Program-made: the position numbers and the translations under genes
Origin: a virus
Lineage: Duplodnaviria; Heunggongvirae; Uroviricota; Caudoviricetes
DNA length: 42,432 nt
Virus record (IMG/VR): IMGVR_UViG_3300025319_000008
Span: 1-42,432 of that record
Strand: one strand, 5' to 3'
Part shown: positions 2,877-33,278 of the stretch, one piece after another
Layout of the letters: each line of letters starts with the position of its first letter
How positions within the stretch are numbered: position 1 is the stretch's first letter
Notes under the pieces: model-generated
The model's input: the letters and a program-made list of their open reading frames with translations, nothing else
Databases searched by the model: none
What the model was told of the DNA's origin: nothing

Positions 2877-3194
2877 ATGAATGATTTCGAAAAACACTAT
2901 ATGAATTTTCCATATTGTTGCTATCCTAAAGAATTATATTATAGAACTGTTTTAATCGAAAAGTTCAAAAAAGATAGGAATAATACAATAATGAGCTGTT
3001 GTGTCATTAATGGAGTGTCTGTTTTTAAAGACCCTACACAAAAAGAAAATGAATTTAGAATTGGAACGAATGGTATGGCAAATAATTATCTTGTTTCTGG
3101 TAATGATACAATATCAATAAAAACAGATAGCTCATTAATCCAGAAGTTAACAAATGCTATAGAAACTTATAAAAATCCAGAAATAGTAAAATGA
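2877..3194 (+). CDS. Hypothetical protein (RTVLIEK motif)
   Basis: 105-aa ORF; stop overlaps the next start as ATGA. Confidence 0.75.
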   Translation: MNDFEKHYMNFPYCCYPKELYYRTVLIEKFKKDRNNTIMSCCVINGVSVFKDPTQKENEFRIGTNGMANNYLVSGNDTISIKTDSSLIQKLTNAIETYKNPEIVK

Positions 3195-3583
3195 ATGAGT
3201 TTAAAATTATAAAATTTCCAATAACAAGAATAGTTTTAGTTGAAAAAAGAATTAAAACTGTAAATCAAATGAAACAATTTTTAAAACAAGAATTTAGTGA
3301 GTGTTCTTTTTATAGATATTGCAAAGATGAACAAATTATTTTTTATACAAAAAATAATTTCACATTATTAGAAATTAAAATTGATGGTGTTTGTGCTTTT
3401 TTAAATGCTGATTACACAAAAAATTATGAAATAATTAAACATGATTTAATTATGAGACAAGAAATTAGGGATTTTATTTTTAAAGATTTGTTTAGATTCG
3501 AAAATTACTCAGAGTGTTTTATTGACTTTTATGGATGTTCTGGATATGCATTTGTGGTTAGTAATAGTCTTGAAATTTCATGA
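3191..3583 (+). CDS. Hypothetical protein (RIVLVEK motif)
   Basis: 130-aa ORF with ATGA overlaps on both sides. Confidence 0.75.
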   Translation: MNEFKIIKFPITRIVLVEKRIKTVNQMKQFLKQEFSECSFYRYCKDEQIIFYTKNNFTLLEIKIDGVCAFLNADYTKNYEIIKHDLIMRQEIRDFIFKDLFRFENYSECFIDFYGCSGYAFVVSNSLEIS

Positions 3584-3885
3584 AAAAACTAAAAAGATTA
3601 TATATTCCTCAATGTGACAATGATTTAAATGTTAGAGTCTTGTTGTTTGAAAAATATAAACCAAAATTATATGGACTAAATTTTTGTTGTTGGATAAATG
3701 ATGTTCCTGTTTATACAGATAGTACATCTGGAAAATTAGGTGTTTTTTCTGGAAGTCAAGGCGATTTGTCTGGGGATAGAATTAGAAAAAGTATAACATT
3801 TCTTATAGTTGGATTTGAACCGGAGGAAATATTAACAGATAGTACCATAATGCAAACTGTTTCTAAGTTGATAGTAGATGTGTAA
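3580..3885 (+). CDS. Hypothetical protein (RVLLFEK motif)
   Basis: 101-aa ORF in the overlapping gene chain. Confidence 0.75.
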   Translation: MKKLKRLYIPQCDNDLNVRVLLFEKYKPKLYGLNFCCWINDVPVYTDSTSGKLGVFSGSQGDLSGDRIRKSITFLIVGFEPEEILTDSTIMQTVSKLIVDV

Positions 3886-3891
3886 ATAACA

Positions 3892-5359
3892 TTAGTTTTC
3901 TGCGTATTTCCAAATGAAACCTCCGGCTGTTTTATATTTCGGTTTTCCTGAACAAACTTTTGGAATTGCAGTACGACTAGCTTTCGTGTTTTTTGAAGCT
4001 TCTGAAATTGAGTTCCAAATGTTTAATATTATACCATCTTTTGTTAGTTGAATTACTTTTTTACTTTTCTGTTTTGCTTTATTTTTTGCATATTCTACTG
4101 TTTCTAAATCTAAATTTTTTATTTCTTCTCCTGATTTGTAATATTTCCAAATAAATCCTCCGGCTGTTTTACTTACTTTTTTACCACATGTTCTATTTGC
4201 ACAAACATCACTTATTTGATTTGAGCCTATATTTAATGTATTAACTATTTCCACTATTGAATTCCATGTTTTAATAAATATTCCTTCAATTGAAAATTGA
4301 TTAATTTTTTTCCAAGTAGATGGGTCGGATGATTTTTCTAAATTAACAGAAATATCTCCATCTGTAAAGTATTTCCAAATAAAACCGCCAGCTATTTTTG
4401 CATTTCTGTAATTAGAACAAACAGAAACAATAGAACTAGTTGCTATTCCTAATGAAATAGAAGCTTCTGTTAATGAATTCCATGTTTTAATAACCTCTCC
4501 ATTTTTTGAAATTTGGTTTACTTTTCTTTTTACTGGTGACTTATTTGTTTTGTTTTTTGTAAATTCTACATTTTTGTATTTCCACATGAATCCACCAGCA
4601 GTTTTATGATTGATTTCATCAGAGCAAACTCTACTTATTGAACTTCTGTCTATTTTTATTGTTTTAGATGCTTCCTCTATTGATTCCCACTCTTTAATAA
4701 AATTCCCTTCTTTAGAAAGTTGAATAACCGCACACACATAGCGAAGGTTTTCTGTTAATTTTAATATTAATTCATCATCTAATTTATTTGGAATTATACC
4801 ATTTTCAAATTCTTCTTTGTAAAACCAAAAACATCCGTTTGATGTTTTTGTAAATTTAGTTAAACATTCATATATTCCTCTTTTATCAAAAAAAGCTTCA
4901 GCGTAACAAACATCACTCCACTCTTTAGAGAAACTTCCGTCAATATCAAATTGCACAATTTCCTTATGTCTGTTTTTATTTTTAGAAATTGCTCCCCTTT
5001 CTAAATTTATTAGTTAATGGGCCTGTTTTGTTGTTTATTTTACCTATAGCATCAATATATTTTGTTTCTGTTTTTAAGGCATTTTTTTCTGATAAATTAG
5101 AATTTAAAATTGAAATTAATGGTTTTGTGTTTTCTTTTTTCATCTCTTGTATGATTGCGTACTTTTCTTTGTTCTCATCACAACAATCGCACATGTGTTC
5201 AGAAACTCTTCTCCCACAACCTTTTCCGACATAAAATGGTTCATAATCAAATGAATATTCTCTATAGATATATTTTCCTGGCTTTCTTGGGTCAAGATAT
5301 ATATAAACATAAAATATATTTTCTTCTTTATATTTTTCTATTAAAACCTTATTTTCCAT
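3892..5359 (-). pseudogene. GIY-YIG homing endonuclease with 4-5 NUMOD1 DNA-binding repeats, split by one frameshift near 5003-5010
   Basis: 4982-5359 has FYVYIYLDPR...FYVGKG (GIY-YIG/LEM-3-like). 3892-4956 has four V/IxQxxxxGxxIxxWxSxxE...C...AGGFxWKY repeats plus a degenerate N-terminal one. Removing one base joins them as GPLTNKLERGAISKNKNRHKEIVQFDIDG. Confidence 0.8.
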
Positions 5360-5492
5360 TTTCTAATACCTCCCTTAAAACTTCTGATATTTTAACTATT
5401 CTTTTTTCTTTTTGACCTCTTTTGAGAGCTTTCTCTACATATGTTTGGTATGTATCACTTGTTAATCTTAACGTTATGTGTTTATCTTTCAT
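5349..5492 (-). CDS. Ribbon-helix-helix protein, 47 aa (ORF track extends it to 5594)
   Basis: MKDKHITLRLTSDTYQTYVEKALKRGQKEKRIVKISEVLREVLENGK: ITLRL strand and ISEVLREVL helix; overlaps the endonuclease start by 11 nt. Confidence 0.72.
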   Translation of the reverse strand: MKDKHITLRLTSDTYQTYVEKALKRGQKEKRIVKISEVLREVLENGK

Positions 5493-5521
5493 TTTTATGT
5501 GTTTAAGTGTTTGTGTGTTAC

Positions 5522-5543
5522 AAATATAAATAGTCAATAAAAA
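5522..5543 (-). promoter_or_regulatory. Putative late-type promoter containing TATTTAT, upstream of the RHH-GIY-YIG cassette
   Basis: 20/22 identical to 2722-2743. Confidence 0.45.
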
Positions 5544-5567
5544 ATGTAAATCGTTAAAATTAAATCG

Positions 5568-5575
5568 TATATTTG
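5568..5575 (+). promoter_or_regulatory. Bacteroidota-type -7 promoter box TATATTTG
   Basis: TAnnTTTG in the intergenic gap 58 nt before the Mre11-Rad50 start. Confidence 0.6.
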
Positions 5576-5633
5576 TCGAGTAACAAATAATCATAAAATT
5601 CGTTTAAGTAAATAAAATAAATAAAAAATACAT

Positions 5634-8600
5634 ATGTCAAAAAATCATCTGGCGCATTTATCAGATTTTCATGTGCGCTACAACAGCCGTCAAGAAGAAT
5701 ATAAAATTGTTTTAAATAGAACAATTGATGATTTAAAATCAATTAAACCAAGAAGAATTGTTCTGGCTGGTGATTTATTTCATACAAAAATAAATATGTC
5801 TCCAACTTCAGTGTCAATTGTTGGAGATTTTTTAAGTAGACTTAGTGAAATTTCTCCGACTGATATTTTAATAGGTAATCACGATTGTTCCCTAACTTCA
5901 TTATCACAAGGAGATAGTATAACGCCAATTATTGAACTTTTGCCCAATGGTTATATTATAACAAAAGAAAATCCAGAATTACCAATTCCAAAAAACCACG
6001 CTCATGGAATTTATTACTTTAAGGAATCTGGATTTTATAATGTTGATGATGAGATTATCTATGGCGTGTATTCTATGTTAGACAATGAAATTTTATCATT
6101 AACCAAAAAAGAAAAAGGTAAAAAATATATAGCTTTATATCATGGTCCAGTTTTTGGTGCCCAGATGGATAATGGGTATGAAGCTGCTGGTGACTCATTA
6201 ATTAAACCATCAGTTTTTAATGGGTTTTCGGCTGCGCTACTTGGCGATTTTCATACTTTTCAGGTCATTCAAGAATATGATGAAGAGAAGCAAAAACCAG
6301 CTATAATTTTTCCAGGCAGCTTAATTCAACAGAATTTTGGAGAATCCATAGACAAAGGTTATGTGTTGTGGGATTTGGATAATTTTTCACACGAACGTCG
6401 CTTCATATTAAACGATTACGGTTACTGCAGGCTTAATATATATAAAGGTGAAATTTGGGAAGACAGGATTCAAGATTTAAAATTCTCTTTAAACAAAAAG
6501 AAAACAAAAATTGAAATTATCATTCATGATGATAAAGAAAACTACTCAGTAGAAAAACTTAGCCAGATTGAAAAGTACATAAAAGATCGTCACGGTTGTG
6601 AATCCGTTAGCGCAGACTTTCAATCAATAGATAGAGAAATTGGAGACAGCACAGAATTAAACGAAGAAGAAATTGATGTTAACAACACAGAAAGTGCTGA
6701 AAAGCTATTAACAGAATACTTAACACAGAACAATTATGATAACACAGAAGATGTTATTGAACTAAGTCGTGAGATTGATAATAAATTAAGCATAAAGCAA
6801 AATCCTACTCATGGAATGCGAATAGATTTTAACAGCATGGAAGTGAGTAATTTATTATCTTTCCCTGTAGCCCCGGTATTTTTTGATTTTGATAGACTGA
6901 GTGGGCTCACGGGGGTGCTCGGTCCTAATTATAATGGGAAATCCAATGTAATGAAAGTTTTTTGTTTTATTTTGTATGGAAAAATGCCGGGGGATTTTGA
7001 AAATTCAAAACTGATTAATTTATACACCAACGTAACAAAAGGATGGGGTAAAATCCACTTTACAATCGCAGGAGTTAAATATTATGCTCATAGAGGAGTT
7101 ACTGTTAAGAGGAAAAAAGATGGAACTCCAGATGTAAGCTATCAAATTGAATATAAAAAACAAATACACTTTATAAATGAACTTACGAATGAAAGTGAAT
7201 TAAAGTGGGTTGATGTAGAATCAGAAAAAGCTGCAACTGAAAAAGGGGAAAAGAAAAAACTTATTACTGATTACATAGGAACATATGAAGACTTTATGGT
7301 TTGTGCTATGCAAACAAACGATCAAAATTATTTAAGTTTGGCTCAACAACCGAAGAATGACCTTATTAATAAATTTTTAGGATTAGAAGTGTATCGCGAT
7401 AAATATGATCTTGGAAATGATATTTTTAAAACTATTAAAGCTCGCCAAAAAGTATTGGGAGACCCAGCTGAACTCGAAACTCAAATAAATGATTTTAAGA
7501 CAAAATTATTATTGGAAAAAGATTCATTAGAAAAACATCAGAAAGAGAAGGGTGAAAACAATAAGAAAATTGATGAATTTAATGATGATATTAATAAATT
7601 AACTGAGAAACTTCATAAAATTGAAGTTCCTGCAGAAACAAATGTTGAAAACATAGAAGTGAGTATTGCTTCATTAAAGACTGATATTGGAAATGGAATT
7701 ATAATATCTAAAGAAAAAGAATCATGGTTAAAAGATAATTTTAAAAAGGATTTGAGTGAAGAATTAAAATCCTTGGACATAAGTTCCATAAAAGAAACAA
7801 ATGTCGAAGTATTAAAATCTAATATCGAAAAGGCTAAAGTTACTATTGAAGAATATGGAATTAAGATAAAAGAAAAAGAAGAATGGTTAGGATTAAACTT
7901 TAAAAAAGATTTAAGTGACGAATTAAAAGATTTGGATATAAGCTCTATAAAAGAGAAAAATGTTGATGTGTTGAAATCTAACATTGAAAAAGTCAAAATT
8001 TCTATTGAAATTGCGAAATCCAAATCCAAAACCATAGAAGAGTGGTTAGAAAAAAACTTTAAAAAAGAGATTAGCGAAAATTTAAAAAATCTTGATAAAG
8101 TCAAAGTGGAAAAGGAATTAAATCTGGAAAAATCCACCTTTGATTCTGAAAAGAAAGAATATGTAGCAATTGAAAACTGGCTTAAAGAAAATGAAGTTAG
8201 AGTAGTTGTAAAACAGGAACCTGTTGAAGATAAGATTGCTAACTGTAAATTTGCTCTTTCTGGTTTGTCAGAAAAGTTAAAAATAGCTAAGGGAGAAAAA
8301 TGTCCGACGTGTAACCACGTTAGTCATGAGGCAAATCCGGAAGCAGAAAAGAAATGCATTAATGATATTGAAAGAGGAAATAAAACTTTAAAAGAACTGC
8401 AGGATGAGCTTGCTAAAATTAAAACTGATAATGAACACAATGCGAAGCATGAGAAAGAAACAAATAAGCTTAGTTCATTAAAGATAAGTCTTCAGGCAAG
8501 GCAAAAAAACATGCTTTCTTTAAAAAGTGACCTTGAACTTTCTTCTCAAAAAGATGAATTTGTAATTCATAATAAAAAAATTGATGATGAAGCAACTGCA

Positions 8601-9695
8601 GTTAAGGAAATCAAAACCTTGATTCTTTTAAAAGAAGAAGAAATTGCTAAATTGAGTGGTTATATTGATTCTATTGAAAAGCATGCTAAAAAAGAGGATA
8701 TACTTAAACACAATAAAGGTATTGATGATGAGATTTCTTCTGTTAAGGAATTTAAAAATTCAATAACATCAAAAGAGGAAGAAATTGTTCAATTGACTAA
8801 TAATATTGATTCTATTGAGAAGTATTCAAAAAAGAAAGAGATTGTTTTGCATAACCAAAAAGTTGATGATGAAACTTTATCTTTAACTAATGCTAAAAAT
8901 TCAATAACGGAAAAAGAGAAAGAAATTGTTATATTGGAAGAGCAAATTAAGACTCTTGAAAAAAATAAAACTCTTGTTCTTGAAAATACAGCAACAAATG
9001 AATTAATTAAAAACAAAAAGGAAGAAATCAATGTTTACAAAGTTATGAACTTACAAGTTGATACAAAAATAAAAGAAAGTTCTGGAAACATAGGTGCTGG
9101 AGATAATAATATTGAAAATTTAAGTGAAAAACTTGAGTCTATTAGAGATACAGACAGAGTTTATAAAAAATATTCTGTTTACCTTCAAGCTGTTGGTCGC
9201 GATGGAATACCGGCAATGATTATCAAAAAGAAATTGCCGATAATAAACCATAAAATAAACTCTCTTCTTAAAAGTATGGTTGCATTTAAAGTAGAAATGA
9301 CTATAAATATAAAAGGGGATGTTAAGGAAATTTTTTATTTCAGCGACAATAAAATGGATTCATTACCAATTGGAAGTGGTTCTGGTTCTATTAAGTTTAT
9401 AACAAGTACGGCAATAAGCGATTCATTACATTTTGTAAGCTCTCTTATAAAGCCAAGTTTGAAGGTGATAGATGAGGGTTTTGATACATTATCTTCTAAG
9501 AAACTCGAAGAATTGGGAGGAATGTTTAATTATTTGAGAACAAAATATAAAAACATATTCATTGTAACTCACAAGAGTGAAGTAAGGGATTATGTTGACA
9601 ACATCATAGAAGTAGAAAAAACCAAAGATGGAATTACTGACCCGGAAGTTTTAGCAAATCCGGAAGCTGGTATATCAAAATTCGTTTATTCTTAA
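5634..9695 (+). CDS. Mre11/SbcD-Rad50/SbcC fusion (gp47/gp46-like), 1353 aa
   Basis: Phosphoesterase motifs HLSDFH, AGDLFH, GNHD, YHG, LGDFH. Walker A GPNYNGKS, coiled coil with CPTC zinc hook, Walker B VIDEGFD, H-loop VTHK. Confidence 0.93.
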   Translation: MSKNHLAHLSDFHVRYNSRQEEYKIVLNRTIDDLKSIKPRRIVLAGDLFHTKINMSPTSVSIVGDFLSRLSEISPTDILIGNHDCSLTSLSQGDSITPIIELLPNGYIITKENPELPIPKNHAHGIYYFKESGFYNVDDEIIYGVYSMLDNEILSLTKKEKGKKYIALYHGPVFGAQMDNGYEAAGDSLIKPSVFNGFSAALLGDFHTFQVIQEYDEEKQKPAIIFPGSLIQQNFGESIDKGYVLWDLDNFSHERRFILNDYGYCRLNIYKGEIWEDRIQDLKFSLNKKKTKIEIIIHDDKENYSVEKLSQIEKYIKDRHGCESVSADFQSIDREIGDSTELNEEEIDVNNTESAEKLLTEYLTQNNYDNTEDVIELSREIDNKLSIKQNPTHGMRIDFNSMEVSNLLSFPVAPVFFDFDRLSGLTGVLGPNYNGKSNVMKVFCFILYGKMPGDFENSKLINLYTNVTKGWGKIHFTIAGVKYYAHRGVTVKRKKDGTPDVSYQIEYKKQIHFINELTNESELKWVDVESEKAATEKGEKKKLITDYIGTYEDFMVCAMQTNDQNYLSLAQQPKNDLINKFLGLEVYRDKYDLGNDIFKTIKARQKVLGDPAELETQINDFKTKLLLEKDSLEKHQKEKGENNKKIDEFNDDINKLTEKLHKIEVPAETNVENIEVSIASLKTDIGNGIIISKEKESWLKDNFKKDLSEELKSLDISSIKETNVEVLKSNIEKAKVTIEEYGIKIKEKEEWLGLNFKKDLSDELKDLDISSIKEKNVDVLKSNIEKVKISIEIAKSKSKTIEEWLEKNFKKEISENLKNLDKVKVEKELNLEKSTFDSEKKEYVAIENWLKENEVRVVVKQEPVEDKIANCKFALSGLSEKLKIAKGEKCPTCNHVSHEANPEAEKKCINDIERGNKTLKELQDELAKIKTDNEHNAKHEKETNKLSSLKISLQARQKNMLSLKSDLELSSQKDEFVIHNKKIDDEATAVKEIKTLILLKEEEIAKLSGYIDSIEKHAKKEDILKHNKGIDDEISSVKEFKNSITSKEEEIVQLTNNIDSIEKYSKKKEIVLHNQKVDDETLSLTNAKNSITEKEKEIVILEEQIKTLEKNKTLVLENTATNELIKNKKEEINVYKVMNLQVDTKIKESSGNIGAGDNNIENLSEKLESIRDTDRVYKKYSVYLQAVGRDGIPAMIIKKKLPIINHKINSLLKSMVAFKVEMTINIKGDVKEIFYFSDNKMDSLPIGSGSGSIKFITSTAISDSLHFVSSLIKPSLKVIDEGFDTLSSKKLEELGGMFNYLRTKYKNIFIVTHKSEVRDYVDNIIEVEKTKDGITDPEVLANPEAGISKFVYS
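7725..8180 (+). repeat. Repeat units in the N-arm of the Rad50 coiled coil (WLxxN at 53, 53, 45 aa spacing)
   Basis: Trp codons at 7725, 7884, 8043 and 8178; near-identical units NFKKDLS(E/D)ELK(S/D)LDISSIKE(T/K)NV(E/D)VLKSNIEK. Confidence 0.95.
8568..8990 (+). repeat. 47-aa repeat units in the C-arm of the Rad50 coiled coil
   Basis: HNxx(I/V)DDE motifs start at 8568, 8709 and 8850 (141-nt period), each followed by KE(E/K)EI. Confidence 0.95.
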
Positions 9696-9705
9696 TTTCT
9701 TCATT

Positions 9706-10080
9706 ATGGATAAAGATATTTTAATAGAAATTTTTAAAAATAAAGCATGTAGTAATGTAGATTCTATTCCTAAAGATTATTGCCGTGGATATGGATTCGA
9801 TTTTTGGTATAATTCTGATTTAGTTGATATACGTATTTTTCAAGAAGAAAATAAGTATCATATCCAATACGAGAGTATATCATTTAAAATTACAAAATCT
9901 GAATATGTTGAACTTTTTTTATTATATGACATAAAAAAGAAATGTGTGGATAAAATAATTGAAGAAGAAAAAAGACAAACTCATATTAAAAACAGCAATT
10001 CTTTAACGGAAATATATCAACAAATTATTTGCCAAAAAAGAAAAGTATTAATTGAAAAAAATATAACAAATGAAAATTAA
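9706..10080 (+). CDS. Hypothetical protein (C-terminal RKVLIEK)
   Basis: 124-aa ORF overlapping the next gene. Confidence 0.75.
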   Translation: MDKDILIEIFKNKACSNVDSIPKDYCRGYGFDFWYNSDLVDIRIFQEENKYHIQYESISFKITKSEYVELFLLYDIKKKCVDKIIEEEKRQTHIKNSNSLTEIYQQIICQKRKVLIEKNITNEN

Positions 10081-10881
10081 AGATTTAGCAGAAAAATTGG
10101 ATTATTGGATTATTCCAAAGAAACATCAAGAAAGTTATGATAATTGCGGTTTAATAGTCGGCTCTGGAGAAAAAACAATAACAGGAATATTAACGACTTT
10201 AGATGTCACAGAAGAAGTTGTTTTGGAAGCTGAAAAATTGGGCTGTAATTTAATTATTTCGCATCATCCAATTATTTTTTTCGCAATAAAAAGCATGGTT
10301 GATAATAACTCTAATCAAAAAACGATTATGTTGGCAATTTCTAAAGGTATTTCAATTTATGCTGCTCACACGTCATTGGATAATAGATTTACCGGAGGTA
10401 TAAATGAAACGCTTGCACAAAAAATTGGATTACAAAACATAACTCCATTTAAAAAATTAAAAACAGAACTTCCTGGTTGGTCTGATGATATAATTATGGG
10501 AAGTGGCGCCATAGGTTATTTATCAGAACCAAAACCTGTCATAGATTTTCTTTATGATTTAAGAAAGACAATAGATATAAGTTGCCCTATAAAATATAGT
10601 TTCATTAAAAAAAATATCCAAATATCAAAATTGCTTTGTGTTCAGGCGCTGGATTATTTATGGCAGAAGAAGCTAAGAAGTTGGGTGCCGAATTGTTTAT
10701 TACTTCTGACATTACGTATCATGGTTTCTTTGATGAAAAAGATATAATTTTAGCAGACATTGGACATTATGATTCTGAAAAGCATGCACCGGAAGTTATT
10801 TCTAATATCCTTCAAAATTTAGATATTAAGAATGTCTATATATCGAAAGTTAATATGAATCCAGTATCTAGTATTGGTTAA
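10070..10881 (+). pseudogene. Nif3-like dinuclear metal-centre protein, frameshifted at an A8 tract (10607-10614)
   Basis: YDNCGLIVG, TTLDVT, IISHHPIIF, IYAAHTSLDN in the first frame; ALCSGAG, ITSDITYH, DIGHYDSE in the -1 frame. Confidence 0.88.
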
Positions 10882-11228
10882 TGAAAGTTGAATTATTCAT
10901 AACAAGAAAAGTTCTGTTTGAAAAACACTCAATTAAAAATGATGTGGAGGGTTTTATAATATCTTATCTTGAGGATTGTGAAGTTGAATTTATTAAATTA
11001 AAAAAAATTATTTTATATAAAAGAAATAGCTTAATTTTGTTTAGGCACGATATTGAAATTGGATATTTTTATATTAACTATTATTTAATATGGTCTCACA
11101 TTTTGTTTTTATTAAATACAAAAGGAATACAGAATGTCGATTTCATTGATGAAATAATTAAAATGAATCTAATGATAACATTTTTTGAAGTTAGGGGATT
11201 GATAGGAATTGACGTTGGAATTTGTTAA
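10881..11228 (+). CDS. Hypothetical protein (RKVLFEK motif)
   Basis: 115-aa ORF starting at the Nif3 stop. Confidence 0.7.
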   Translation: MKVELFITRKVLFEKHSIKNDVEGFIISYLEDCEVEFIKLKKIILYKRNSLILFRHDIEIGYFYINYYLIWSHILFLLNTKGIQNVDFIDEIIKMNLMITFFEVRGLIGIDVGIC

Positions 11229-11235
11229 ATTAATT

Positions 11236-12672: not shown

Positions 12673-12677
12673 TAAAA

Positions 12678-13088
12678 ATGGCAGGAGAACACAAAATAAG
12701 CTGGCATTATAAAATATATTTTTTTATAATTTCCTTTTTGATTCAATTATATTGTTTGCTGTTATATTTTTTTATAAACCATAGAATTTTTTCTGTTAAA
12801 ATTAGAATAAAAATTACTGAATTTATTGCTCAAAAAATCGATAATCAAATTGATTTTGTGCAAAGAAGAAAATTTTGGAACGGTGCACAAAAAGTTCATT
12901 ATACTTTTTTTATTGATTATATTTTGGAAAAAAATAAACTTTCACTCAATATTAGTTATGAAGATAGTGATGCTGTAAAGTTGGAGCGATACTTAAAACA
13001 CGTTTTGCTCGCATATAAAAATTATCTATTGATTGATAAACACGAATTTACATCAAGCGTTTTAATTGAAAAAATAAGCAACAAATAA
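12678..13088 (+). CDS. Hypothetical protein with N-terminal hydrophobic helix (C-terminal SSVLIEK)
   Basis: 136-aa ORF; hydrophobic stretch IYFFIISFLIQLYCLLLYFFI. Confidence 0.7.
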   Translation: MAGEHKISWHYKIYFFIISFLIQLYCLLLYFFINHRIFSVKIRIKITEFIAQKIDNQIDFVQRRKFWNGAQKVHYTFFIDYILEKNKLSLNISYEDSDAVKLERYLKHVLLAYKNYLLIDKHEFTSSVLIEKISNK

Positions 13089-13094
13089 TACAAA

Positions 13095-13107
13095 AATCCG
13101 TTTAATA
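13095..13107 (+). promoter_or_regulatory. Candidate phage-specific promoter motif AATCCGTTTAATA
   Basis: Exact 13-bp match to 29110-29122; both copies are intergenic and lie 16-22 nt before an ATG. Confidence 0.5.
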
Positions 13108-13123
13108 AAGAAAAATACATATT

Positions 13124-13750
13124 ATGGAAATTAAACTTAGTTACGAAGAAGTGAAAACCAATCATTCAGATTTGATTGGTGTTCTTGTTGGAAAAATGCA
13201 AACATCAAAATTAAAGGATAAGAGTAAATCAGAAAGAGAATATGATTTTTATTATTCTTATGGAGTTGCAGTAAGGGGTATGAATTTTGGTGAAATGGTT
13301 AATCAAATACATAACAGAGATTTTAAAACAGAACAGGAAAAAAGTTCTTCTGAAATTATAAATGAAAAACTTAATTCAGTTATAGGGTTGAGCTTAACAA
13401 TTTCTTCCGGACGAACAAAACGTTACATTGCTTTAAGTGAAAAACCAAGGCTCTTTGTTGATAAATTCTCTGAAATTTATATAGAAAGCATTAAGGAAAT
13501 TAAAAAAGAAGAGGAACGTTTATCAAAACTTACTCCAGACGAAAAAGATAGAGAAATACAGGAAAGCATTAATGAGCTTTCGGAAATGGGTGGTTTTCTT
13601 GCTCTTAATGTAGGAAATAATGGTGTAAAACAAATACTTCCGCAGGAAATAGACTATGACGTAGATGACATTTTGGATAAGATAGGAAGAGTCGGAGTTG
13701 ATGGTCTTACTGAAGGAGAAAGAAAATTCCTTAAACAACATTCAAAATAA
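13124..13750 (+). CDS. Hypothetical protein with C-terminal DUF6576-like helical hairpin
   Basis: C-terminus VDDILDKIGRVGVDGLTEGERKFL resembles the tail of Bacteroidota rhomboid proteases (recalled, not searched). Confidence 0.6.
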   Translation: MEIKLSYEEVKTNHSDLIGVLVGKMQTSKLKDKSKSEREYDFYYSYGVAVRGMNFGEMVNQIHNRDFKTEQEKSSSEIINEKLNSVIGLSLTISSGRTKRYIALSEKPRLFVDKFSEIYIESIKEIKKEEERLSKLTPDEKDREIQESINELSEMGGFLALNVGNNGVKQILPQEIDYDVDDILDKIGRVGVDGLTEGERKFLKQHSK

Positions 13751-13761
13751 AAACGTAAAAA

Positions 13762-14955
13762 ATGGCAATCAAATCACTTTTAGAATTAGATTATTACAAA
13801 AAAACAATGCAACAATTTGCTTGGAAGAAATTTCCAAATGAACATGTTAAATATGCTTTTAAAAATCGTACAAAAAACGTAACTCTCGGTCATTTAAAAT
13901 ACCAGTTAATTCAAGAAATTGATAGAATTAAAAAAATAGAGCTGTCTGATATTGAAATTTTATTTTTGAAAATACAAACTATATTTTCTGATGATTACTT
14001 GCAATTCTTAAAAAGAGTAAAGTTGCCGGACGTGAATATAGACGTAGATAAAAATAATGAGCTCATTATTGAAACAGAAGGATTGTGGTCAGAAGCTATT
14101 GATTGGGAAACCATTATACTTAGTACAGTAAATGAATTATATTATAAAACTGATAAGGATTCTGAAAAAAATGCCTGGAAAATAGGAGAAGAAAGATTAC
14201 TAAACAAAATACAATTACTTAAACAACATCCCGATTTACGTTTTGTTGACTTTGGTACCAGAAGGGCGTATTCTACAGAGTGGCATAAGCGTGTTGTTGA
14301 AATATTGTTAAATGAAATTCCAACTCAGTTATACGGCACATCAAATGTTTATTTAGCAAACTTGTTTGGAGTAAAAAACATAGGTACAAGCGCACATGAG
14401 TGCCCGATGATACTTTCAAGACTCTTTGGAAATACTGATGACAACATAAGAGACTCTCAAAATAAATTTTATGATATGTGGTATGAAATGTATGGAGAAA
14501 ATTTATCAATATGTCTTCCTGACACATTTGGAAGCGATTATACATTTTCTACATTTGGAAAAGAAAGATTTGAGAAATGGAAAGGTTTTAGACAAGACTC
14601 TGGAGATCCAACAGAATCTGCATTGAAACAATTGAAAAAATACGAAGACTTTAACATTGATGCGACAAATAAATTATTCATGCCGAGCGATGGATTGACT
14701 GTTGAAAAAATGATTGATTTGCATACTAAATTTAAATCAAAAATTCTGGTATTGCCTGCTATTGGTACTTCTCTTACAAATGATGTTGGAGCGTCTCCTA
14801 TAAGCATTGTAATGAAGGCTGTTGAGGTAAATCATATGGGATTAGTAAAAATGAGCGATAATACAGGTAAGTTTACCGGTAAAACAGAAGACATTGAGAG
14901 ATTTAAGAAAATATTCAATTATGAGAATACGAGTTCTCAAGAAATAATATTTTAA
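13762..14955 (+). CDS. pncB: Nicotinate phosphoribosyltransferase
   Basis: DYYKKTMQQ, DFGTRRAYS, GTSNVYLA, GTSAHE (phospho-His motif), LPDTFG, RQDSGDP, SDGL, IGTSLTND, VKMSDNTGK. Confidence 0.93.
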   Translation: MAIKSLLELDYYKKTMQQFAWKKFPNEHVKYAFKNRTKNVTLGHLKYQLIQEIDRIKKIELSDIEILFLKIQTIFSDDYLQFLKRVKLPDVNIDVDKNNELIIETEGLWSEAIDWETIILSTVNELYYKTDKDSEKNAWKIGEERLLNKIQLLKQHPDLRFVDFGTRRAYSTEWHKRVVEILLNEIPTQLYGTSNVYLANLFGVKNIGTSAHECPMILSRLFGNTDDNIRDSQNKFYDMWYEMYGENLSICLPDTFGSDYTFSTFGKERFEKWKGFRQDSGDPTESALKQLKKYEDFNIDATNKLFMPSDGLTVEKMIDLHTKFKSKILVLPAIGTSLTNDVGASPISIVMKAVEVNHMGLVKMSDNTGKFTGKTEDIERFKKIFNYENTSSQEIIF

Positions 14956-15273
14956 ATGACGCCTCCAATTATAAATCTTGATGAGCTAAAAGCGAAAATG
15001 TGCCAAGTTAACCCTGCTGATTTTATGTCTGGTACATTAATATCAGAAATTTTTAAAACATCTACTGATTTTAAAATAAAATTACTAAATACAAAAGATA
15101 GTATAAATGGCAGAGAAACAGCAGGTGATAAAATTATAAAGTTAACATTTATATGGAATGGGCATCCTTATGAACGAATTGATGGAAGTCAAATTTGGTT
15201 TATGGATGTTGAAGAATATTTTAGAATGAATACCAGATTTGTCATAGTTGAGAAAAAACAAAAATTAGAATGA
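14956..15273 (+). CDS. Hypothetical protein (C-terminal RFVIVEK)
   Basis: 105-aa ORF directly after pncB. Confidence 0.7.
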   Translation: MTPPIINLDELKAKMCQVNPADFMSGTLISEIFKTSTDFKIKLLNTKDSINGRETAGDKIIKLTFIWNGHPYERIDGSQIWFMDVEEYFRMNTRFVIVEKKQKLE

Positions 15274-15623
15274 AAAAAGAAGTTATTGAAACGATGAAAC
15301 AATATAGTTTTATCAAGGATTAATTATATAAAGAATTTTATATAACCAGTGAGGAAGATTGTGGTACATTTGGTGTCCAAACAGATACTGAAAATGAAGG
15401 ATTTGAAAGAGCTGTTTTTAATAAATTTAAATCTATTGGTGTTATGGGAGAAAACGGACCAATGAATCACATAGGAGAACGAGCATCTTTTAGAATATAT
15501 TATCATAATAATGGTCTCGTAGAACTGTTGTTCGAAAATAACGGTTACGTTGATGAAGTTAAAGATTTCAAACATTTGATGTATTTGCTTGACCCTAAAA
15601 ATTTAGATTTACAAACAAAATGA
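15270..15623 (+). pseudogene. Hypothetical gene (about 117 aa) with an in-frame TAA at 15321-15323
   Basis: The frame has ATGA overlaps with both neighbours: MKKEVIETMKQYSFIKD*LYKEFYITSEEDCG...DLQTK. Confidence 0.7.
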
Positions 15624-16993
15624 AAATGATAACAGGAAACGATTTAATACAAATGGGATTTGAACGTGGAAAATGGTTTGGAATAGCCATTGAACACATT
15701 AATACAAATGATTTGTCCGGAGATGCTATGATGTCGTATATTGATACCGTAAAGCCTCCACCACCACTTCCGGTTATTTCTTTACATGCTGAACCTGTTA
15801 AGTATTTTTTAAATATAACAGCAGAAACAGAATTGGAAAAAGAGAACGTGAAAAAGGTTTGCGAAAGTATGGATATATTAATGAGAACTCCTGTTGTTGT
15901 GGGCGGTTGTGTTATGCCAGATGCTTGCCCGACAGGTGTTGGACATATTCCGGTAGGAGGAATTGCAATTGTTAAAAACGCAGTAGTTCCTAATTTCCAC
16001 TCTGCAGACATTTGTTGTTCTCTTATGCTTACGAACATTGGTAAAGTTGATCCGAAATTAGTTTTGGATACTGCCATGAAATTTGCACATTTTGGAGCCG
16101 GAGGACGTCCTCGCGAAACTCAATTTAGATTACCACAAGAAATTTTGACAGAGATTGAATTAAATCCATTTTTGAACTCAGAACATAGTATCAGTATAGC
16201 AAGAAGCCATCTGGGAACGAGCGGGGACGGGAATCACTTCATTTTTTGTGGCGTTTCTAAGAAAACGGGTGATACAATTATAGTTTCACATTATGGTTCC
16301 AGGGGTTTTGGCGCAGCTTTGTATAAAACAGGAATGAAAGTGGCTGAAAATTTCAGAAAGAAATTATCCCCAGAAACGCCATCTATGAATGCCTGGATTC
16401 CATTTGATACAACAGAAGGCGAGAATTATTGGAATGCATTACAAACCGTTCGTAAGTGGACAAAACAAAATCATATTTGTATTCATAACAAAATAGCTGA
16501 AGGTTTAAATACTGAAATCAAAGACAGATTTTGGAATGAACATAATTTCGTATTTAAAGATGGCGATTTGTTTTATCATGCTAAAGGTGCAACACCTATG
16601 AATTCTAAATTTATGCCTGATATTACCGGACCAAGAATTATTCCTTTGAATATGAGTCAACCAATTTTAATTGTTGAAGGCGGTAATAATGAACATGGTT
16701 TAGGTTTCGCTCCACACGGAGCCGGAAGAAATCTAAGTAGGACCCAACACAAAAAAGAAAAAGGTGATAAATCTATACAAGATATTTTCACAGAAGAAAC
16801 TCAAGGGATTGATGCAAGATTTTTCTCTGGCAAAATTGATATTTCTGAATTGCCAAGTGCGTATAAAAATGCTGAAGAAGTGAAGAAACAAATTATAGAA
16901 TTTGATCTTGCTACAATTATTGATGAAATAACTCCAGTAGGATGTATTATGGCTGGCCACATAGAAAATAATTGGAGAAAAAAGAAAAAATAA
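15620..16993 (+). CDS. rtcB: RtcB-family RNA ligase
   Basis: MPDACP, HSADICCS, GTSGDGNHF, SHYGSRG, NEHNF, HAKGATP, APHGAGR (guanylylated His), SELPSAYK. Confidence 0.93.
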   Translation: MKMITGNDLIQMGFERGKWFGIAIEHINTNDLSGDAMMSYIDTVKPPPPLPVISLHAEPVKYFLNITAETELEKENVKKVCESMDILMRTPVVVGGCVMPDACPTGVGHIPVGGIAIVKNAVVPNFHSADICCSLMLTNIGKVDPKLVLDTAMKFAHFGAGGRPRETQFRLPQEILTEIELNPFLNSEHSISIARSHLGTSGDGNHFIFCGVSKKTGDTIIVSHYGSRGFGAALYKTGMKVAENFRKKLSPETPSMNAWIPFDTTEGENYWNALQTVRKWTKQNHICIHNKIAEGLNTEIKDRFWNEHNFVFKDGDLFYHAKGATPMNSKFMPDITGPRIIPLNMSQPILIVEGGNNEHGLGFAPHGAGRNLSRTQHKKEKGDKSIQDIFTEETQGIDARFFSGKIDISELPSAYKNAEEVKKQIIEFDLATIIDEITPVGCIMAGHIENNWRKKKK

Positions 16994-16994
16994 T

Positions 16995-17393
16995 ATGCTA
17001 TTCCTTAAAAACAAAAGAGACAGACATGTTCTTTTCGAAAAGAAAGGATGGCACTCAGTTGAAATGAAATTAATTTATTTAGGAAAGTATATTAATACTT
17101 GCAAGGAACAGAATATTGAAAGTGAAGACGAATTTGGATTTGATGTGACAATAATATACAAAGAAACAAGCTGGATAAGCAGAGCATCTAAAATTAAAAT
17201 ATATAATGAAAAACTTTTCAATTGCACTCAAGTACATTATGGGTATACGGAAATTGGAACAGTTGATTTAATAACTAAAATAGCATTTGAAAGCGATATA
17301 CATAGCACTGGATTTAATAGAGAAATAAGTGATATTGAAAGTGTTAAAATAACATTATCAAATGAAATGCATGCTGATTACCATAGAATATGA
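16995..17393 (+). CDS. Hypothetical protein (RHVLFEK motif)
   Basis: 132-aa ORF in the overlapping chain. Confidence 0.72.
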   Translation: MLFLKNKRDRHVLFEKKGWHSVEMKLIYLGKYINTCKEQNIESEDEFGFDVTIIYKETSWISRASKIKIYNEKLFNCTQVHYGYTEIGTVDLITKIAFESDIHSTGFNREISDIESVKITLSNEMHADYHRI

Positions 17394-17737
17394 ATCTTAT
17401 TAAAACAAATACTGCAACCAGATTAGTTTTGTTTGAAAAAACTCAACCTGATGAAAGGATGAAATTTTATAATTCAATAATAGAATCACAAGAAGATGGT
17501 CTATTAAATAATTATGCTATTGAAAGTTTGATTAAAATGACTATTAGTGAGGTTTGTAAAAAAAGAAATCTTATTGGCGGTTTTATAAATAAAGATACTT
17601 TTGGTAATTTAATTCATTCTGCTCTCGAATTTTCAATGAAACATTTCAATAAATATAGGGATGACAAAAACCCAGAAAAATGTTATAAATATTTTTTAAC
17701 CTTAATTAATCATAATATAAATGCTAACCTTCAGTAA
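17390..17737 (+). CDS. Hypothetical protein (RLVLFEK motif); weak resemblance to sigma region 2 / gp55-like proteins
   Basis: 115-aa ORF; the sigma resemblance is by eye only. Confidence 0.6.
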   Translation: MNLIKTNTATRLVLFEKTQPDERMKFYNSIIESQEDGLLNNYAIESLIKMTISEVCKKRNLIGGFINKDTFGNLIHSALEFSMKHFNKYRDDKNPEKCYKYFLTLINHNINANLQ

Positions 17738-18425
17738 TAAACCAATATTAGGAATGGTTCACCTTGCCGGTGATAATCCACACGAAAGAGCTTTAGAAGA
17801 AGCTGAAATGATGTTAAGCGAAGGAGTGGATGGTATCATCGTTGAAAACTATCATGGAAGTGTCGAGGATGTAAGACGTACATTGCTTCACCTGAAAGAT
17901 TGTGGTGGAATATTAGGATTAAATATATTACCAAATGAATTTGAATTAGCTTTCGAATTAGCACAAGAATTTAATGCCAGTTTCATTCAATTAGATTATG
18001 TTGCCGGTAAATATAACCGAGCGTCAACATTTGATATAGAAAGGTTTCTTAAAATAAAAGCAAGTCATTCTTCTGATATTAAAGTTCTTGGAGGGATTCA
18101 TCCTAAATATTACGAGCCAGTAAAAGGTTCTATTTTAAAAGATGATATTGAGGAAGGTATGACATTGGCAAGTGCAATAGTCGTTACCGGCTCCGGTACC
18201 GGTTCAGAAACTCCAATGCAGAAAATAAAGGAATTTAGAAACATTATGGGTGAATATCCGTTAATAATAGGAGCTGGTTTAAATCCTTCAAATGTAGTTG
18301 AACAATTATCAATTGCAGATGGTGGTATCGTAGGCAGTTGTTTTAAGCCCTATGGCAGAACACAAGAAAAAATTGAAAGAAGTCTTGTTAAAGAATTTAT
18401 GGATGAAGTTAAAAAAATAAGATAA
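17721..18425 (+). CDS. btpA: BtpA/SgcQ-family TIM-barrel protein
   Basis: GMVHL, GVDGIIVEN, GLNILPN, VVTGSGTG, IIGAGLN, DGGIVGS. Confidence 0.85.
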   Translation: MLTFSNKPILGMVHLAGDNPHERALEEAEMMLSEGVDGIIVENYHGSVEDVRRTLLHLKDCGGILGLNILPNEFELAFELAQEFNASFIQLDYVAGKYNRASTFDIERFLKIKASHSSDIKVLGGIHPKYYEPVKGSILKDDIEEGMTLASAIVVTGSGTGSETPMQKIKEFRNIMGEYPLIIGAGLNPSNVVEQLSIADGGIVGSCFKPYGRTQEKIERSLVKEFMDEVKKIR

Positions 18426-18427
18426 AT

Positions 18428-18811
18428 ATGACACGTATTAATTGTGGGATTTTGCCTATTGAACTAACAAATAAGCATTTAATTGCTGAACATAGAGAAA
18501 TTAAAAGAATTCCTAATTGTGTTTCAAAAGGTAGATTTAATTTGAAAAATCAACCTGAAAAATTCACATTAGGCACTGGACATGTAAAGTTTTTTTATGA
18601 TAAACTTGGTTATTTAAAAAAACGTTATGAGGAGCTTTATGTTGAATGCTTAAAACGTAATATTAATGTGCAATATTATGGTAATTCTTGGAATGATGTT
18701 CCTAAAGAAATGATGAATGATTATTGTCCAACAGATTCTGATAGAAAATTGATTAGACAACGAATTTTAGAAAAATTAACTAATAAAAAATTAGATAATG
18801 GCACTTTTTGA
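18428..18811 (+). CDS. denV: Pyrimidine-dimer DNA glycosylase (T4 endonuclease V-like)
   Basis: MTRIN (Thr2), HLIAEHREI, FTLGTGHVKFFYDKLGYLKKRY. Confidence 0.93.
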   Translation: MTRINCGILPIELTNKHLIAEHREIKRIPNCVSKGRFNLKNQPEKFTLGTGHVKFFYDKLGYLKKRYEELYVECLKRNINVQYYGNSWNDVPKEMMNDYCPTDSDRKLIRQRILEKLTNKKLDNGTF

Positions 18812-19055
18812 TATACGACCTGATACGCAATATGATGCTACGATGAAACGATGGAAAGACGCAGAGGATAATTTATCAATAGGAGATACGGTATTATATA
18901 ATACTATCTGGAGTTATAGACTTTATGGTAACAAAGGAATAATAACTGGAACAATAAAATCATTTTTAAATTGGCATACTGTAGAGGTTGTTACAGAAGA
19001 TGGTCATAAATGGGGTGTCAATGTTGACCTTGTTGATAAAATAGAAAAAAAATAA
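18798..19055 (+). CDS. Hypothetical protein, possible small SH3-like barrel
   Basis: 85-aa ORF; IGDTVLY...KGIITG...VEV pattern. Confidence 0.65.
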   Translation: MALFDIRPDTQYDATMKRWKDAEDNLSIGDTVLYNTIWSYRLYGNKGIITGTIKSFLNWHTVEVVTEDGHKWGVNVDLVDKIEKK

Positions 19056-19059
19056 TATT

Positions 19060-19379
19060 ATGAGCTGGTTTCAATTAGGTAACATAAACACGAAAGAGCG
19101 TAAAAAGATTAAAGGAATCTGGCTAAGAAAACGACCAGGATGTAATCTTGATGTTGAAGAAGCTATTAAAAAAGCAAAAATCTGAGGTTCACTGAGGTTG
19201 TGTGGAAAATTGAAATAGTTGAACTTAGAAAAAATAATCAGGTTTTATTGGAGGTTTGGGCTCAAAGTGCTTTTGATTCTATAGCTGGAAAGGAAAGACA
19301 TAATGTTTTTCATATACTGATTAATCAAAACCCAGAATGGATTTGTGAAGGTGATTTAGGAAAAGGATATAAAATGTAA
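19060..19379 (+). pseudogene. Hypothetical gene frameshifted at A5 (19176-19180)
   Basis: MSWFQLG...AIKKAK continues as NLRFTEVVWKIEIV...GKGYKM if one A is added; fills the gap exactly. Confidence 0.65.
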
Positions 19380-19382
19380 AAA

Positions 19383-19901
19383 ATGACAGAACCCGATGAT
19401 GAAAATAAGAGTTTAAATGAAGCTAATAAGATTTTTAAGAGCATGCCTAGTGTGTCTAATAAAACAAACAACGTATACTGTAGAAAAGTTTTAATTGAAA
19501 AATGTCGTAGAGGAAGAGAAATGTCTGAAAAGTTTTTAAGAAGAACGGACGTTTTTTATCCAGACATTCACAATACGCTTGATAGAAAAGAAACTCAAAT
19601 TGAACATGAATTAGTTTCAATATTTGAGAAATTACAAATACAAGCTTCAACAAAAACAGATAAACGCTCACTACCATATAACAATGTTATAGTTTCTCGT
19701 TTAATGCTTGAGACAGATGTTTCTGCTATGTTTGATTCAAAAAGAATATACAGAAAAATAATATCAGAATTACTTACTAAAGACATATACAGAATAAGAT
19801 TTTATATTCACATAGAAACTTACGAAGACAATTCAAATATGATGGCAAAAATACTTGGAATGTGTGGTTTAAAGTATTGTTTTAGATATTATGTTCCTTA
19901 A
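19383..19901 (+). CDS. Hypothetical protein (RKVLIEK motif)
   Basis: 172-aa ORF. Confidence 0.75.
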   Translation: MTEPDDENKSLNEANKIFKSMPSVSNKTNNVYCRKVLIEKCRRGREMSEKFLRRTDVFYPDIHNTLDRKETQIEHELVSIFEKLQIQASTKTDKRSLPYNNVIVSRLMLETDVSAMFDSKRIYRKIISELLTKDIYRIRFYIHIETYEDNSNMMAKILGMCGLKYCFRYYVP

Positions 19902-19912
19902 AAAAATAACAA

Positions 19913-20086
19913 ATGAAAAATAAAATTAGAATACCTCGCAAATTAAAGAAACAATTTCATTTTGAATTTAAATGCAAAGTATCATGTTTTTTAAATGACA
20001 TTCGTGAGCCAATTAGTAAGCATGGTAAATACGTATTTTTTGTTGGCTCATGCGAAATTCCTAAACCTAAACAAAATTATGCATAA
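19913..20086 (+). CDS. Small basic hypothetical protein, 57 aa, not in ORF track
   Basis: MKNKIRIPRKLKKQFHFEFKC...QNYA fills the intergenic gap. Confidence 0.55.
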   Translation: MKNKIRIPRKLKKQFHFEFKCKVSCFLNDIREPISKHGKYVFFVGSCEIPKPKQNYA

Positions 20087-20101
20087 ATGATAAATTTTTT
20101 C

Positions 20102-20109
20102 TATCTTTG
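20102..20109 (+). promoter_or_regulatory. Bacteroidota-type -7 box TATCTTTG
   Basis: TATCTTTGCA, 7 nt before the ATG at 20117. Confidence 0.65.
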
Positions 20110-20116
20110 CAAAACA

Positions 20117-20332
20117 ATGGACGAAATTTTCGAATTTAATTCTGATTCAACTCATGGCAATATTAAATTTAAAAAAATTACAACTACATCTCCAGAAACA
20201 TGGCAAATGTATAATCCGGATTTTAAAAAATGGGTCAAAGTTGAATACAGTACTGCTTTAAGTTATTTTAATCTTTTGATACAAAAAAGACAAGTTTTAA
20301 TTGAAAAAAAAGGAAATGGCACCAAAAAATAA
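20117..20332 (+). CDS. Hypothetical protein (C-terminal RQVLIEK); ORF track starts at 20087
   Basis: Start moved to the ATG downstream of the promoter box. Confidence 0.7.
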   Translation: MDEIFEFNSDSTHGNIKFKKITTTSPETWQMYNPDFKKWVKVEYSTALSYFNLLIQKRQVLIEKKGNGTKK

Positions 20333-29144: not shown

Positions 29145-29393
29145 ATGGGCGTAATGTCTTGTTCGAGAAGAAATTGCGAAAGCATAATGTGTGACTGTTA
29201 TGTTCCTGATATTGGATATATTTGTAATGAATGTCAAAATGAATTTAAGGAAATCTCAACTATAGGGAATCTAACTCATACTGAATTGGAAATTCGTGTG
29301 GAATTAGAAGAATTCATGAAAACTCCTAAAAATGATTATGATAACGAAAAAGATATAACTGCAGATGAATTTTTTAGAAACCACTCAAAATAA
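29145..29393 (+). CDS. Cys-rich hypothetical protein
   Basis: CSRRNC..IMCDC...YICNEC. Confidence 0.7.
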   Translation: MGVMSCSRRNCESIMCDCYVPDIGYICNECQNEFKEISTIGNLTHTELEIRVELEEFMKTPKNDYDNEKDITADEFFRNHSK

Positions 29394-33236: not shown

Positions 33237-33278
33237 ATAAATCTTCAACGTTTTTATAAAACTTAAAAAAATAAAGTT

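Follow-up and report, generated by a model that had tools for sequence, protein, structure and literature searches.

Why would a dozen small proteins of one tailed virus, with nothing else visibly in common, carry the same seven residues near one of their ends? The question is raised by a window of 42,432 nucleotides at the start of a 106-kb virus record whose G+C content is 29% (Caudoviricetes; IMG/VR record IMGVR_UViG_3300025319_000008, called G000 here). The peptide follows the strict pattern R-x-[VL]-[LI]-[IFV]-E-K, the last five residues being taken as its core, and is referred to below as the tag. It is a portable core peptide on many unrelated small accessory proteins, where it is N-terminal, C-terminal or placed at a fusion junction. 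Ten strict and two degenerate sites had been reported in the initial annotation, and a six-frame scan recovered all 12 of them in place. They are listed here with their open reading frames (ORFs) and the lengths of the products in amino acids (aa), followed by one further match.

2943..2963, plus strand: RTVLIEK, residues 23-29 of the 105-aa product of ORF 2877-3194, N-terminal class
3227..3247, plus strand: (T)RIVLVEK, residues 13-19 of the 130-aa product of ORF 3191-3583
3634..3654, plus strand: RVLLFEK, residues 19-25 of the 101-aa product of ORF 3580-3885
5333..5353, minus strand: NKVLIEK, degenerate, residues 3-9 of the 125-aa GIY-YIG nuclease of ORF 4982-5359
10039..10059, plus strand: RKVLIEK, 6 residues from the stop of the 124-aa ORF 9706-10080, C-terminal class
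10905..10925, plus strand: (T)RKVLFEK, residues 9-15 of the 115-aa product of ORF 10881-11228
13053..13073, plus strand: SSVLIEK, degenerate and without the Arg, 4 residues from the stop of the 136-aa ORF 12678-13088
15235..15255, plus strand: (T)RFVIVEK, 5 residues from the stop of the 105-aa ORF 14956-15273
17022..17042, plus strand: RHVLFEK, residues 10-16 of the 132-aa product of ORF 16995-17393
17420..17440, plus strand: (T)RLVLFEK, residues 11-17 of the 115-aa product of ORF 17390-17737
19482..19502, plus strand: RKVLIEK, residues 34-40 of the 172-aa product of ORF 19383-19901
20288..20308, plus strand: RQVLIEK, 7 residues from the stop of the 81-aa ORF 20087-20332
29150..29170, plus strand: RNVLFEK, excluded from the tag count; its frame lacks a start codon, and it overlaps the start of ORF 29145-29393, which uses another frame

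Thus, 12 of the 13 matches of the six-frame scan are in frame with a long ORF. As first described, the location is near the termini: the tags fall within the first ~36-40 or the last 11 residues (counted to the motif end) of proteins of 81-172 aa. The large enzymes had been said to lack the motif, and the sole match in any of them is a core-only LLLEK in a 1353-aa protein, which is at chance level.

Can such a recurrence be accidental? In the called proteins, the strict pattern is found 10 times, while shuffled proteomes predict 0.017, and the five-residue core is found 12 times against 0.5. Over six frames, 11 strict matches were observed where Markov-1 random windows give 0.067. Chance is ruled out by these expectations, which lie far below the observed counts, and the shuffled-proteome check, with about 0 strict matches expected, bears out the earlier estimate of fewer than one chance match.

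How far, then, does the tag extend beyond the window? Two relatives, G001 and G002, were found by scanning IMG/VR for one DNA spelling of the tag. G001 is a complete genome of 518,809 bp with terminal repeats, and G002 is a 212-kb fragment. The 106-kb record is itself a fragment, and the head genes are not in it; it is syntenic with positions 115-223 kb of G001, with protein identities of 30-85%, while G002 is syntenic with further parts of G001. The tag is carried by 31 of the 165 called genes of the whole G000 record, where the tagged genes are concentrated at 1-20 kb and 87-106 kb, by 91 of 821 in G001 and by 40 of 400 in G002, that is, by 10-19% of all genes. The initial count of about a dozen carriers understates the scale. 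A 12.7-kb contig holds ten tags and has no detectable protein in common with G000. When the protein of ORF 10881 was used in a word-indexed homologue search, it returned only itself, on a 503-kb contig, and a BLAST of the window DNA and of a lineage-specific 827-aa protein against a phage collection gave no match. The RNVLFEK at 29150-29170 lies inside a segment (~29.1-29.9 kb) that is missing between the orthologous flanking genes of G001, and is probably a chance match or a decayed or frameshifted remnant of a tagged gene.

Across these genomes, the consensus is [T]-R-x-V-L-[I/F/T/V/L]-E-K. Given the remaining motif, Glu and Lys are ~99% invariant; Arg is found in 79% of tags (Lys in 11%), Val in 78%, and the Leu position holds Leu in 70% and Ile in 21%. 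The residue before the Glu (I, F, T, V or L) is the most variable of the core, Thr directly precedes the Arg in 45% of tags, and Phe or Tyr is frequent after the Lys. Around 35% of the tags are N-terminal, ~52% C-terminal and ~13% internal. The N-terminal ones begin 1-39 residues in, with a mode of 8-11, and the C-terminal ones finish 0-29 residues ahead of the stop, with a mode of 4-6. Tags at the extreme end exist as well, in proteins that start with MRIVLIEK and in others that end in RKVLIEK and a stop. N- and C-tagged genes are mixed within the same arrays. The tails past C-terminal tags are often strongly basic (KKIKIVKKSKTKK, RRKRKETI, KRKRPK; for example, at G000 87830-88369 and G001 511275-512749), and Arg is enriched 2.5-2.7-fold at four to six residues past the tag.

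A side observation concerns the N-tagged genes. Five of the eight within the window have a Met in frame 6-9 residues past the tag, in the segments given here.

2964-2990, after RTVLIEK
3248-3271, after RIVLVEK
17043-17066, after RHVLFEK
17441-17461, after RLVLFEK
19503-19523, after RKVLIEK

Over the three genomes, such a Met is present in 23 of 68 cases against 10.5 expected, a comparison that is confounded by paralogues. In the G001 orthologue of ORF 16995-17393, which encodes RDVIIEK in frame but 5' of its first ATG, this first ATG is exactly at the post-tag Met. The tag may, in these genes, have been gained by N-terminal extension, or there may be dual initiation.

Is it the DNA or the protein that is being conserved? 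Along the 21 bases of the tag, the information is three-periodic; the third codon positions are nearly uninformative, and the flanks hold no signal. All four bases are used at the third position of the Val codons (A9 C4 G3 T15), and the Leu, Val, Arg, Glu and Lys codons are variable among tags. In G000, the codon choice is that of the genome as a whole (total chi-square p = 0.45). The spellings in relatives have up to about half of the 21 bases changed, one example being CGC CGG GTT CTC GTA GAG AAA, and G002 spells the tag with CGC/CGG (CGN), GTC/GTG and CTC/CTG (CTN) codons. The back-translated DNA pattern has 58 matches in G001 and 39 in G002, while the reversed control has 0. Copies out of frame or in intergenic DNA were sought in six frames; none was intergenic, and the one found out of frame is at chance level. 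Selection acts on the protein and not on the DNA, as had been proposed from the variable Leu codons.

The opposite explanation, that a DNA or RNA element (a promoter, a recombination boundary or a regulatory site) is translated only incidentally, can hardly be credited any more. Many copies are indeed close to gene boundaries, and the commonest form, GTTTTAATTGAAAAA, has stop codons in both other frames; therefore, an in-frame location alone is no proof, and it is the codon evidence that serves as such. However, third positions almost without information, flanks without any, codon use equal to that of the genome and the very different spelling in relatives all contradict such an element, as do the lack of intergenic copies, the single chance-level copy out of frame and the variable distance to the neighbouring start and stop codons. 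Neither conservation independent of codon position and frame nor intergenic copies were found, and a DNA-level repeat is effectively refuted. A nascent-peptide or translational-coupling role was also considered; it does not agree with the wide spread of distances to the start and stop codons (1-39 and 0-29 residues), and was rejected.

If the protein is what matters, the carriers might all descend, as divergent paralogues, from one small domain that includes the motif. Local families do exist, and in these the tag is kept by every member (10/10, 7/7 and 4/4). However, with the tag masked, the 162 tagged proteins of the three genomes fall into 122 BLASTP clusters, the largest of which has 7 members, and a Pfam search of the tagged proteins found no family common to them. 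The domains recognised among the carriers, namely GIY-YIG, Tad3, LAGLIDADG, zinc ribbon and capsid-protein fragments, are mutually unrelated, and the tag is N-terminal in some carriers, C-terminal or internal in others. One of the carriers is a homologue of Tad3, the Thoeris inhibitor. Similarity beyond the motif and a fixed position were both lacking, so that a single paralogous domain is effectively refuted and has next to no probability; the carriers are as unrelated as the initial annotation had described them.

The conservation of the tag in orthologues supports this portability. At 30-50% identity, the orthologues retain the tag almost unchanged, and two that appear tagless encode it in frame 5' of the first ATG. 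Homologues of ORF 3191-3583 in G001 have RRVLTEK or RKVFLEK at the matching position. In a 7-member alignment of the ORF 10881-11228 family (34-39% identity to it), the T, R, K, V, E and K of the tag are invariant. The NKVLIEK of the GIY-YIG ORF 4982-5359 lies within a short N-terminal extension, and the G001 homologue, which starts MNKNKNIFYVY, is without this extension. In one protein of 254 aa, the tag is mid-chain; G001 has two adjacent genes in place of this protein, the first with a C-terminal tag.

What kind of signal may a peptide of this sort be? AlphaFold models were made for two families from shallow alignments, with an overall predicted local distance difference test (pLDDT) of 59 and 66. 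In both, the tag is in a low-confidence segment outside the packed core: in the model of ORF 10881-11228, it is in the N-terminal low-confidence tail, and in the other, in a coil linker with a dip in pLDDT. The positions, the orthologues and these models together agree with the short linear motif that was claimed at first, portable and exposed. We infer that the tag is an exposed short linear peptide read by one common partner. The common partner is putative, and the decoy role offered among the first suggestions has found no specific support.

It may also be asked whether the tagged proteins read each other, by pairing or co-assembling through the tag. R-x-V-L-x-E would be charge-complementary to itself in an antiparallel register, and N- and C-tagged genes do share arrays. 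However, neither of the AlphaFold models predicts a confident strand at the tag, and seven residues are very short for a stable interface. Self- or cross-association is thus quite improbable.

The distribution of the tag is narrow. In the 20-kb stretch round the gene of a gp21-type protease in relatives, three tags are found where the protease is 82% identical and six where it is 71% identical, but none where it is 66% identical. In 18 IMG/VR records with proteases 32-70% identical, seven of them complete genomes of 350-412 kb, the pattern is at control level, and the same is true of a 642-kb huge phage that has a ClpC-like gene. Since the tag is absent from records with related proteases, it is an innovation of a narrow clade of ~500-kb phages with T4-type heads. 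The host is probably a member of the Bacteroidota, and is placed there by three features: a Shine-Dalgarno-like sequence is upstream of only 2-5% of genes, the motif TAnnTTTG is frequent in intergenic DNA, and the closest cultured capsid protein, at 35% identity, is that of a Flavobacterium phage.

The partner that we favour, at a probability of roughly one in three, is the T4-type head assembly, with the tag as a capsid-targeting or prohead-protease signal. It is suggested because L-x-E|K fits the I/L-x-E specificity of the protease family. The tag would dock small proteins into the prohead core, and its V-L-x-E|K (P3 Leu, P1 Glu) would serve as an I/L-x-E site for the prohead protease of gp21 type. 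Once packaged, the tagged proteins would enter the next infected cell along with the DNA, as a cargo including at least one anti-defence homologue and selfish nucleases. Binding, cleavage and packaging of the tagged proteins are all predictions of this reading.

Several findings are consistent with the head assembly as the partner. G001 has a scaffold-like gene and encodes a T4-type (gp23-type) major capsid protein and, at 358997-359665, a protease of the Peptidase_S77 (gp21) type. The gp21 of T4 cleaves after Glu in I/L-x-E, and a short peptide at a protein terminus serves T4 as its capsid targeting sequence (PMC12991175, citing Mullaney and Black 1996). The tag contains this consensus, with Leu in 70% and Ile in 21% at P3, a variable P2 and a ~99% Glu at P1. 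Larger proteins of these genomes show two types of N-terminal leader, both of which end in I/L-x-E. The first, M-x-LSE-x-[YF]-K-x-RL-x-x-LAG-[IV] followed by an [IL]-x-E site, is found on large unrelated proteins (a 990-aa protein, a CCA-adding enzyme and others), and looks like a T4-style propeptide with a prohead-protease site. The second, M-x-x-[IL]-R-K-x-I-R-K-x-L-x-E-[S/E/A], has an end, R-K-[I/C/F]-L-x-E, that closely resembles the tag. Their positions, with those of small tagged ORFs built from pieces of the T4-type major capsid protein (Pfam Gp23), are as follows.

Window 38012-38100: LSE leader
Window 41252-41330: LSE leader
G000 64221: LSE leader, with ~16 more proteins in G001 and G002
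G000 43009-43060, just past the window: IRK leader
G000 44013-44060, just past the window: IRK leader
G000 62082, past the window: IRK leader, ~11 proteins in all over the three genomes
G001 432124-432528: tagged capsid-fragment ORF
G001 469916-470308: tagged capsid-fragment ORF
G001 308534-308767: tagged capsid-fragment ORF
G002 171024-171836: tagged capsid-fragment ORF

One of the capsid-fragment ORFs has a copy of the capsid propeptide-like N-terminus together with two tags. One carrier is the Tad3 homologue, and T4 likewise packages an anti-restriction internal protein. The tags conserved at internal junctions also suit a cleavage or docking site better than a free-end signal. A known system close to the tag is the T4 capsid targeting sequence of internal proteins IPI-III and Alt: in each case, a phage with a T4-type head has a short peptide at the ends of proteins not otherwise related, the tag contains Leu/Ile-x-Glu, G001 has a gp21-type protease, and an anti-defence homologue is among the cargo. 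The differences are that the tag is mostly C-terminal or internal, has the extra invariant Arg, Val and Lys, is on 10-19% of genes, is absent with a moderately diverged gp21-type protease and is known here from sequence alone.

A number of points weigh against the head assembly. The invariant Arg, Val and P1' Lys exceed what I/L-x-E specificity needs, and the presumed site of the capsid protein (HMLNE|V) and those of the leaders have a small or polar P1'. Where the tag is at the very end of a protein (MRIVLIEK at the start or RKVLIEK before the stop), cleavage would take away nothing of use. The T4 capsid targeting sequence differs from the majority of tags, which are C-terminal, and a removable N-terminal leader of ~10 residues does not describe the tags, as only ~35% are N-terminal. 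Phages with a gp21-type protease 65-66% identical have no tags, and therefore the protease family alone fails to explain the tag. The motif CTATTTAT, which precedes scaffold, protease, terminase-like and sheath-like genes, is directly upstream of 0 of 203 tagged genes, and within the arrays it is the nearest upstream motif for only 10% of them, the promoter classes being putative. Tagging of 10-19% of genes would also imply an unusually diverse packaged cargo. When the gp21-type protease of G001 was modelled in complex with residues 1-40 of a G001 protein tagged at the N-terminus, the score was 0.00, which counts neither way.

Another intergenic motif was also seen. The ~17-bp T(C/T)GTATAGTACATTATA has ~80 copies and is strongly enriched intergenically in G000, G001 and G002. 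It is the nearest upstream motif for 22% of small untagged genes and for 3% of tagged ones, a contrast that suggests two regulatory classes of small accessory genes.

Might the tag instead provide docking to, or an address for, one reader of another kind, of phage or host origin, that is unrelated to the capsid? Possible readers of this type include chaperones, for example the J-domain protein of the phage, as well as adaptors, factors of the membrane or of export, and compartments made by the phage. Such a dedicated reader is a tentative proposal, about equally likely as the capsid or protease. The evidence for a portable, exposed, protein-level tag fits it equally, and the strictly invariant Arg, Glu and Lys point to a dedicated pocket that binds them. 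The tag is clade-specific, while the head protease and ClpC are widespread, and the tagged genes are unlinked to the late-like promoter motif. However, no candidate was found, with no untagged gene family co-localising with the tagged arrays, and the likeness to I/L-x-E sites and to the R-K-x-L-x-E leaders is left unexplained. The logic is that of encapsulin cargo-loading and bacterial-microcompartment encapsulation peptides. These have ~7-20 residues, lie at either terminus on a flexible linker and are read by the inner face of the shell, and the encapsulin shell has the HK97 fold, like the phage capsid. The tag is alike in being at either terminus of unrelated proteins, but it has no sequence similarity to these peptides, and its scale and strict E-K invariance are unlike theirs.

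A last possibility is that the tag marks small and possibly toxic accessory proteins for timed unfolding and degradation, by the ClpC-like unfoldase and ClpP of the phage or by an AAA+ protease of the host. In bacteria, degrons are short peptides at the termini of proteins with no relation to each other, and the tags are near termini, in flexible segments. Past the window, G000 has genes for a double-AAA+ unfoldase, ClpC-like but lacking the N-domain (48397-50427), and for ClpP (51535-52224), beside a J-domain protein; the unfoldase is 78% identical in G001. However, a ClpC-like gene is present in 13 of the 14 tag-less related phage records searched, as well as in the tag-less 642-kb phage, and the Clp genes are therefore not specific to the tag. 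The tags are usually 4-11 residues in from the end and not at a free terminus (modes of 8-11 from the N-terminus and 4-6 from the C-terminus), and copies at internal junctions are conserved. Strong purifying selection on a degron in more than 160 accessory proteins would also be harder to explain than that on a signal they need. The ssrA tag and the N- and C-motifs of ClpX substrates are similar in being short peptides near the termini of unrelated proteins, and this phage has both the ClpC-like unfoldase and ClpP of its own. They differ in acting at the extreme end and in varying from substrate to substrate, whereas the tag is uniform, is usually some residues away from the end, is also conserved at internal positions and is missing in relatives with the same Clp genes. 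Degradation is, on this evidence, an unlikely role. Within the cluster of proteostasis genes (G000 48397-54443), a GIY-YIG gene and an HNH homing-endonuclease gene are inserted among the Clp and J-domain genes.

Taken with the T4, encapsulin or microcompartment and degron systems, the tag matches their logic, but its sequence matches none of them. To our knowledge, it also matches no sliding-clamp, DnaK-type or PDZ-type motif consensus. A literature search with the peptide strings and for shared motifs in jumbo phages returned nothing relevant, and no description of the tag was found. The use of either end, the strict E-K core, the share of 10-19% of the proteome and the restriction to one clade are new with respect to the known systems.

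Further genes of the window lie at 13762-14955, 31329-35135 and 15620-16993. They comprise NAD (nicotinamide adenine dinucleotide) salvage and repair genes, for nicotinate phosphoribosyltransferase, NAD synthetase, NAD-dependent ligase and RtcB, together with those for NIF3, BtpA, a UvrD-type helicase and the SbcC-like ATPase of 1353 aa. All of these are untagged.

What would such a tag mean for these viruses? There is, in our estimate, a little short of an even chance that this ~500-kb phage clade has evolved a sorting code resembling signal peptides, in which more than 100 small accessory proteins share one tag of 7-8 residues, usable at either end, and reach a single destination by way of a dedicated reader. 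Anti-defence and selfish-nuclease proteins would be among the carriers, and new genes would gain the routing by acquiring the tag. The destination could be the giant capsid, into which the proteins would be pre-loaded and from which they would be co-injected, or another compartment built by the phage. In huge phages, small orphans to which no function can be assigned make up most of the genes, and a tag on 10-19% of genes provides one experimental handle on more than 100 uncharacterised proteins. It is also a simple sequence marker for the phage clade and its accessory genes in metagenomes. Finding the reader would reveal where the carriers go. If this is the capsid, they would form the largest known set of proteins injected by a phage, and the tag would be ready for use with foreign cargo in large capsids. 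If it is a degron or leads to another compartment, it would represent a proteome-wide control of sorting or timing in a bacterial virus.

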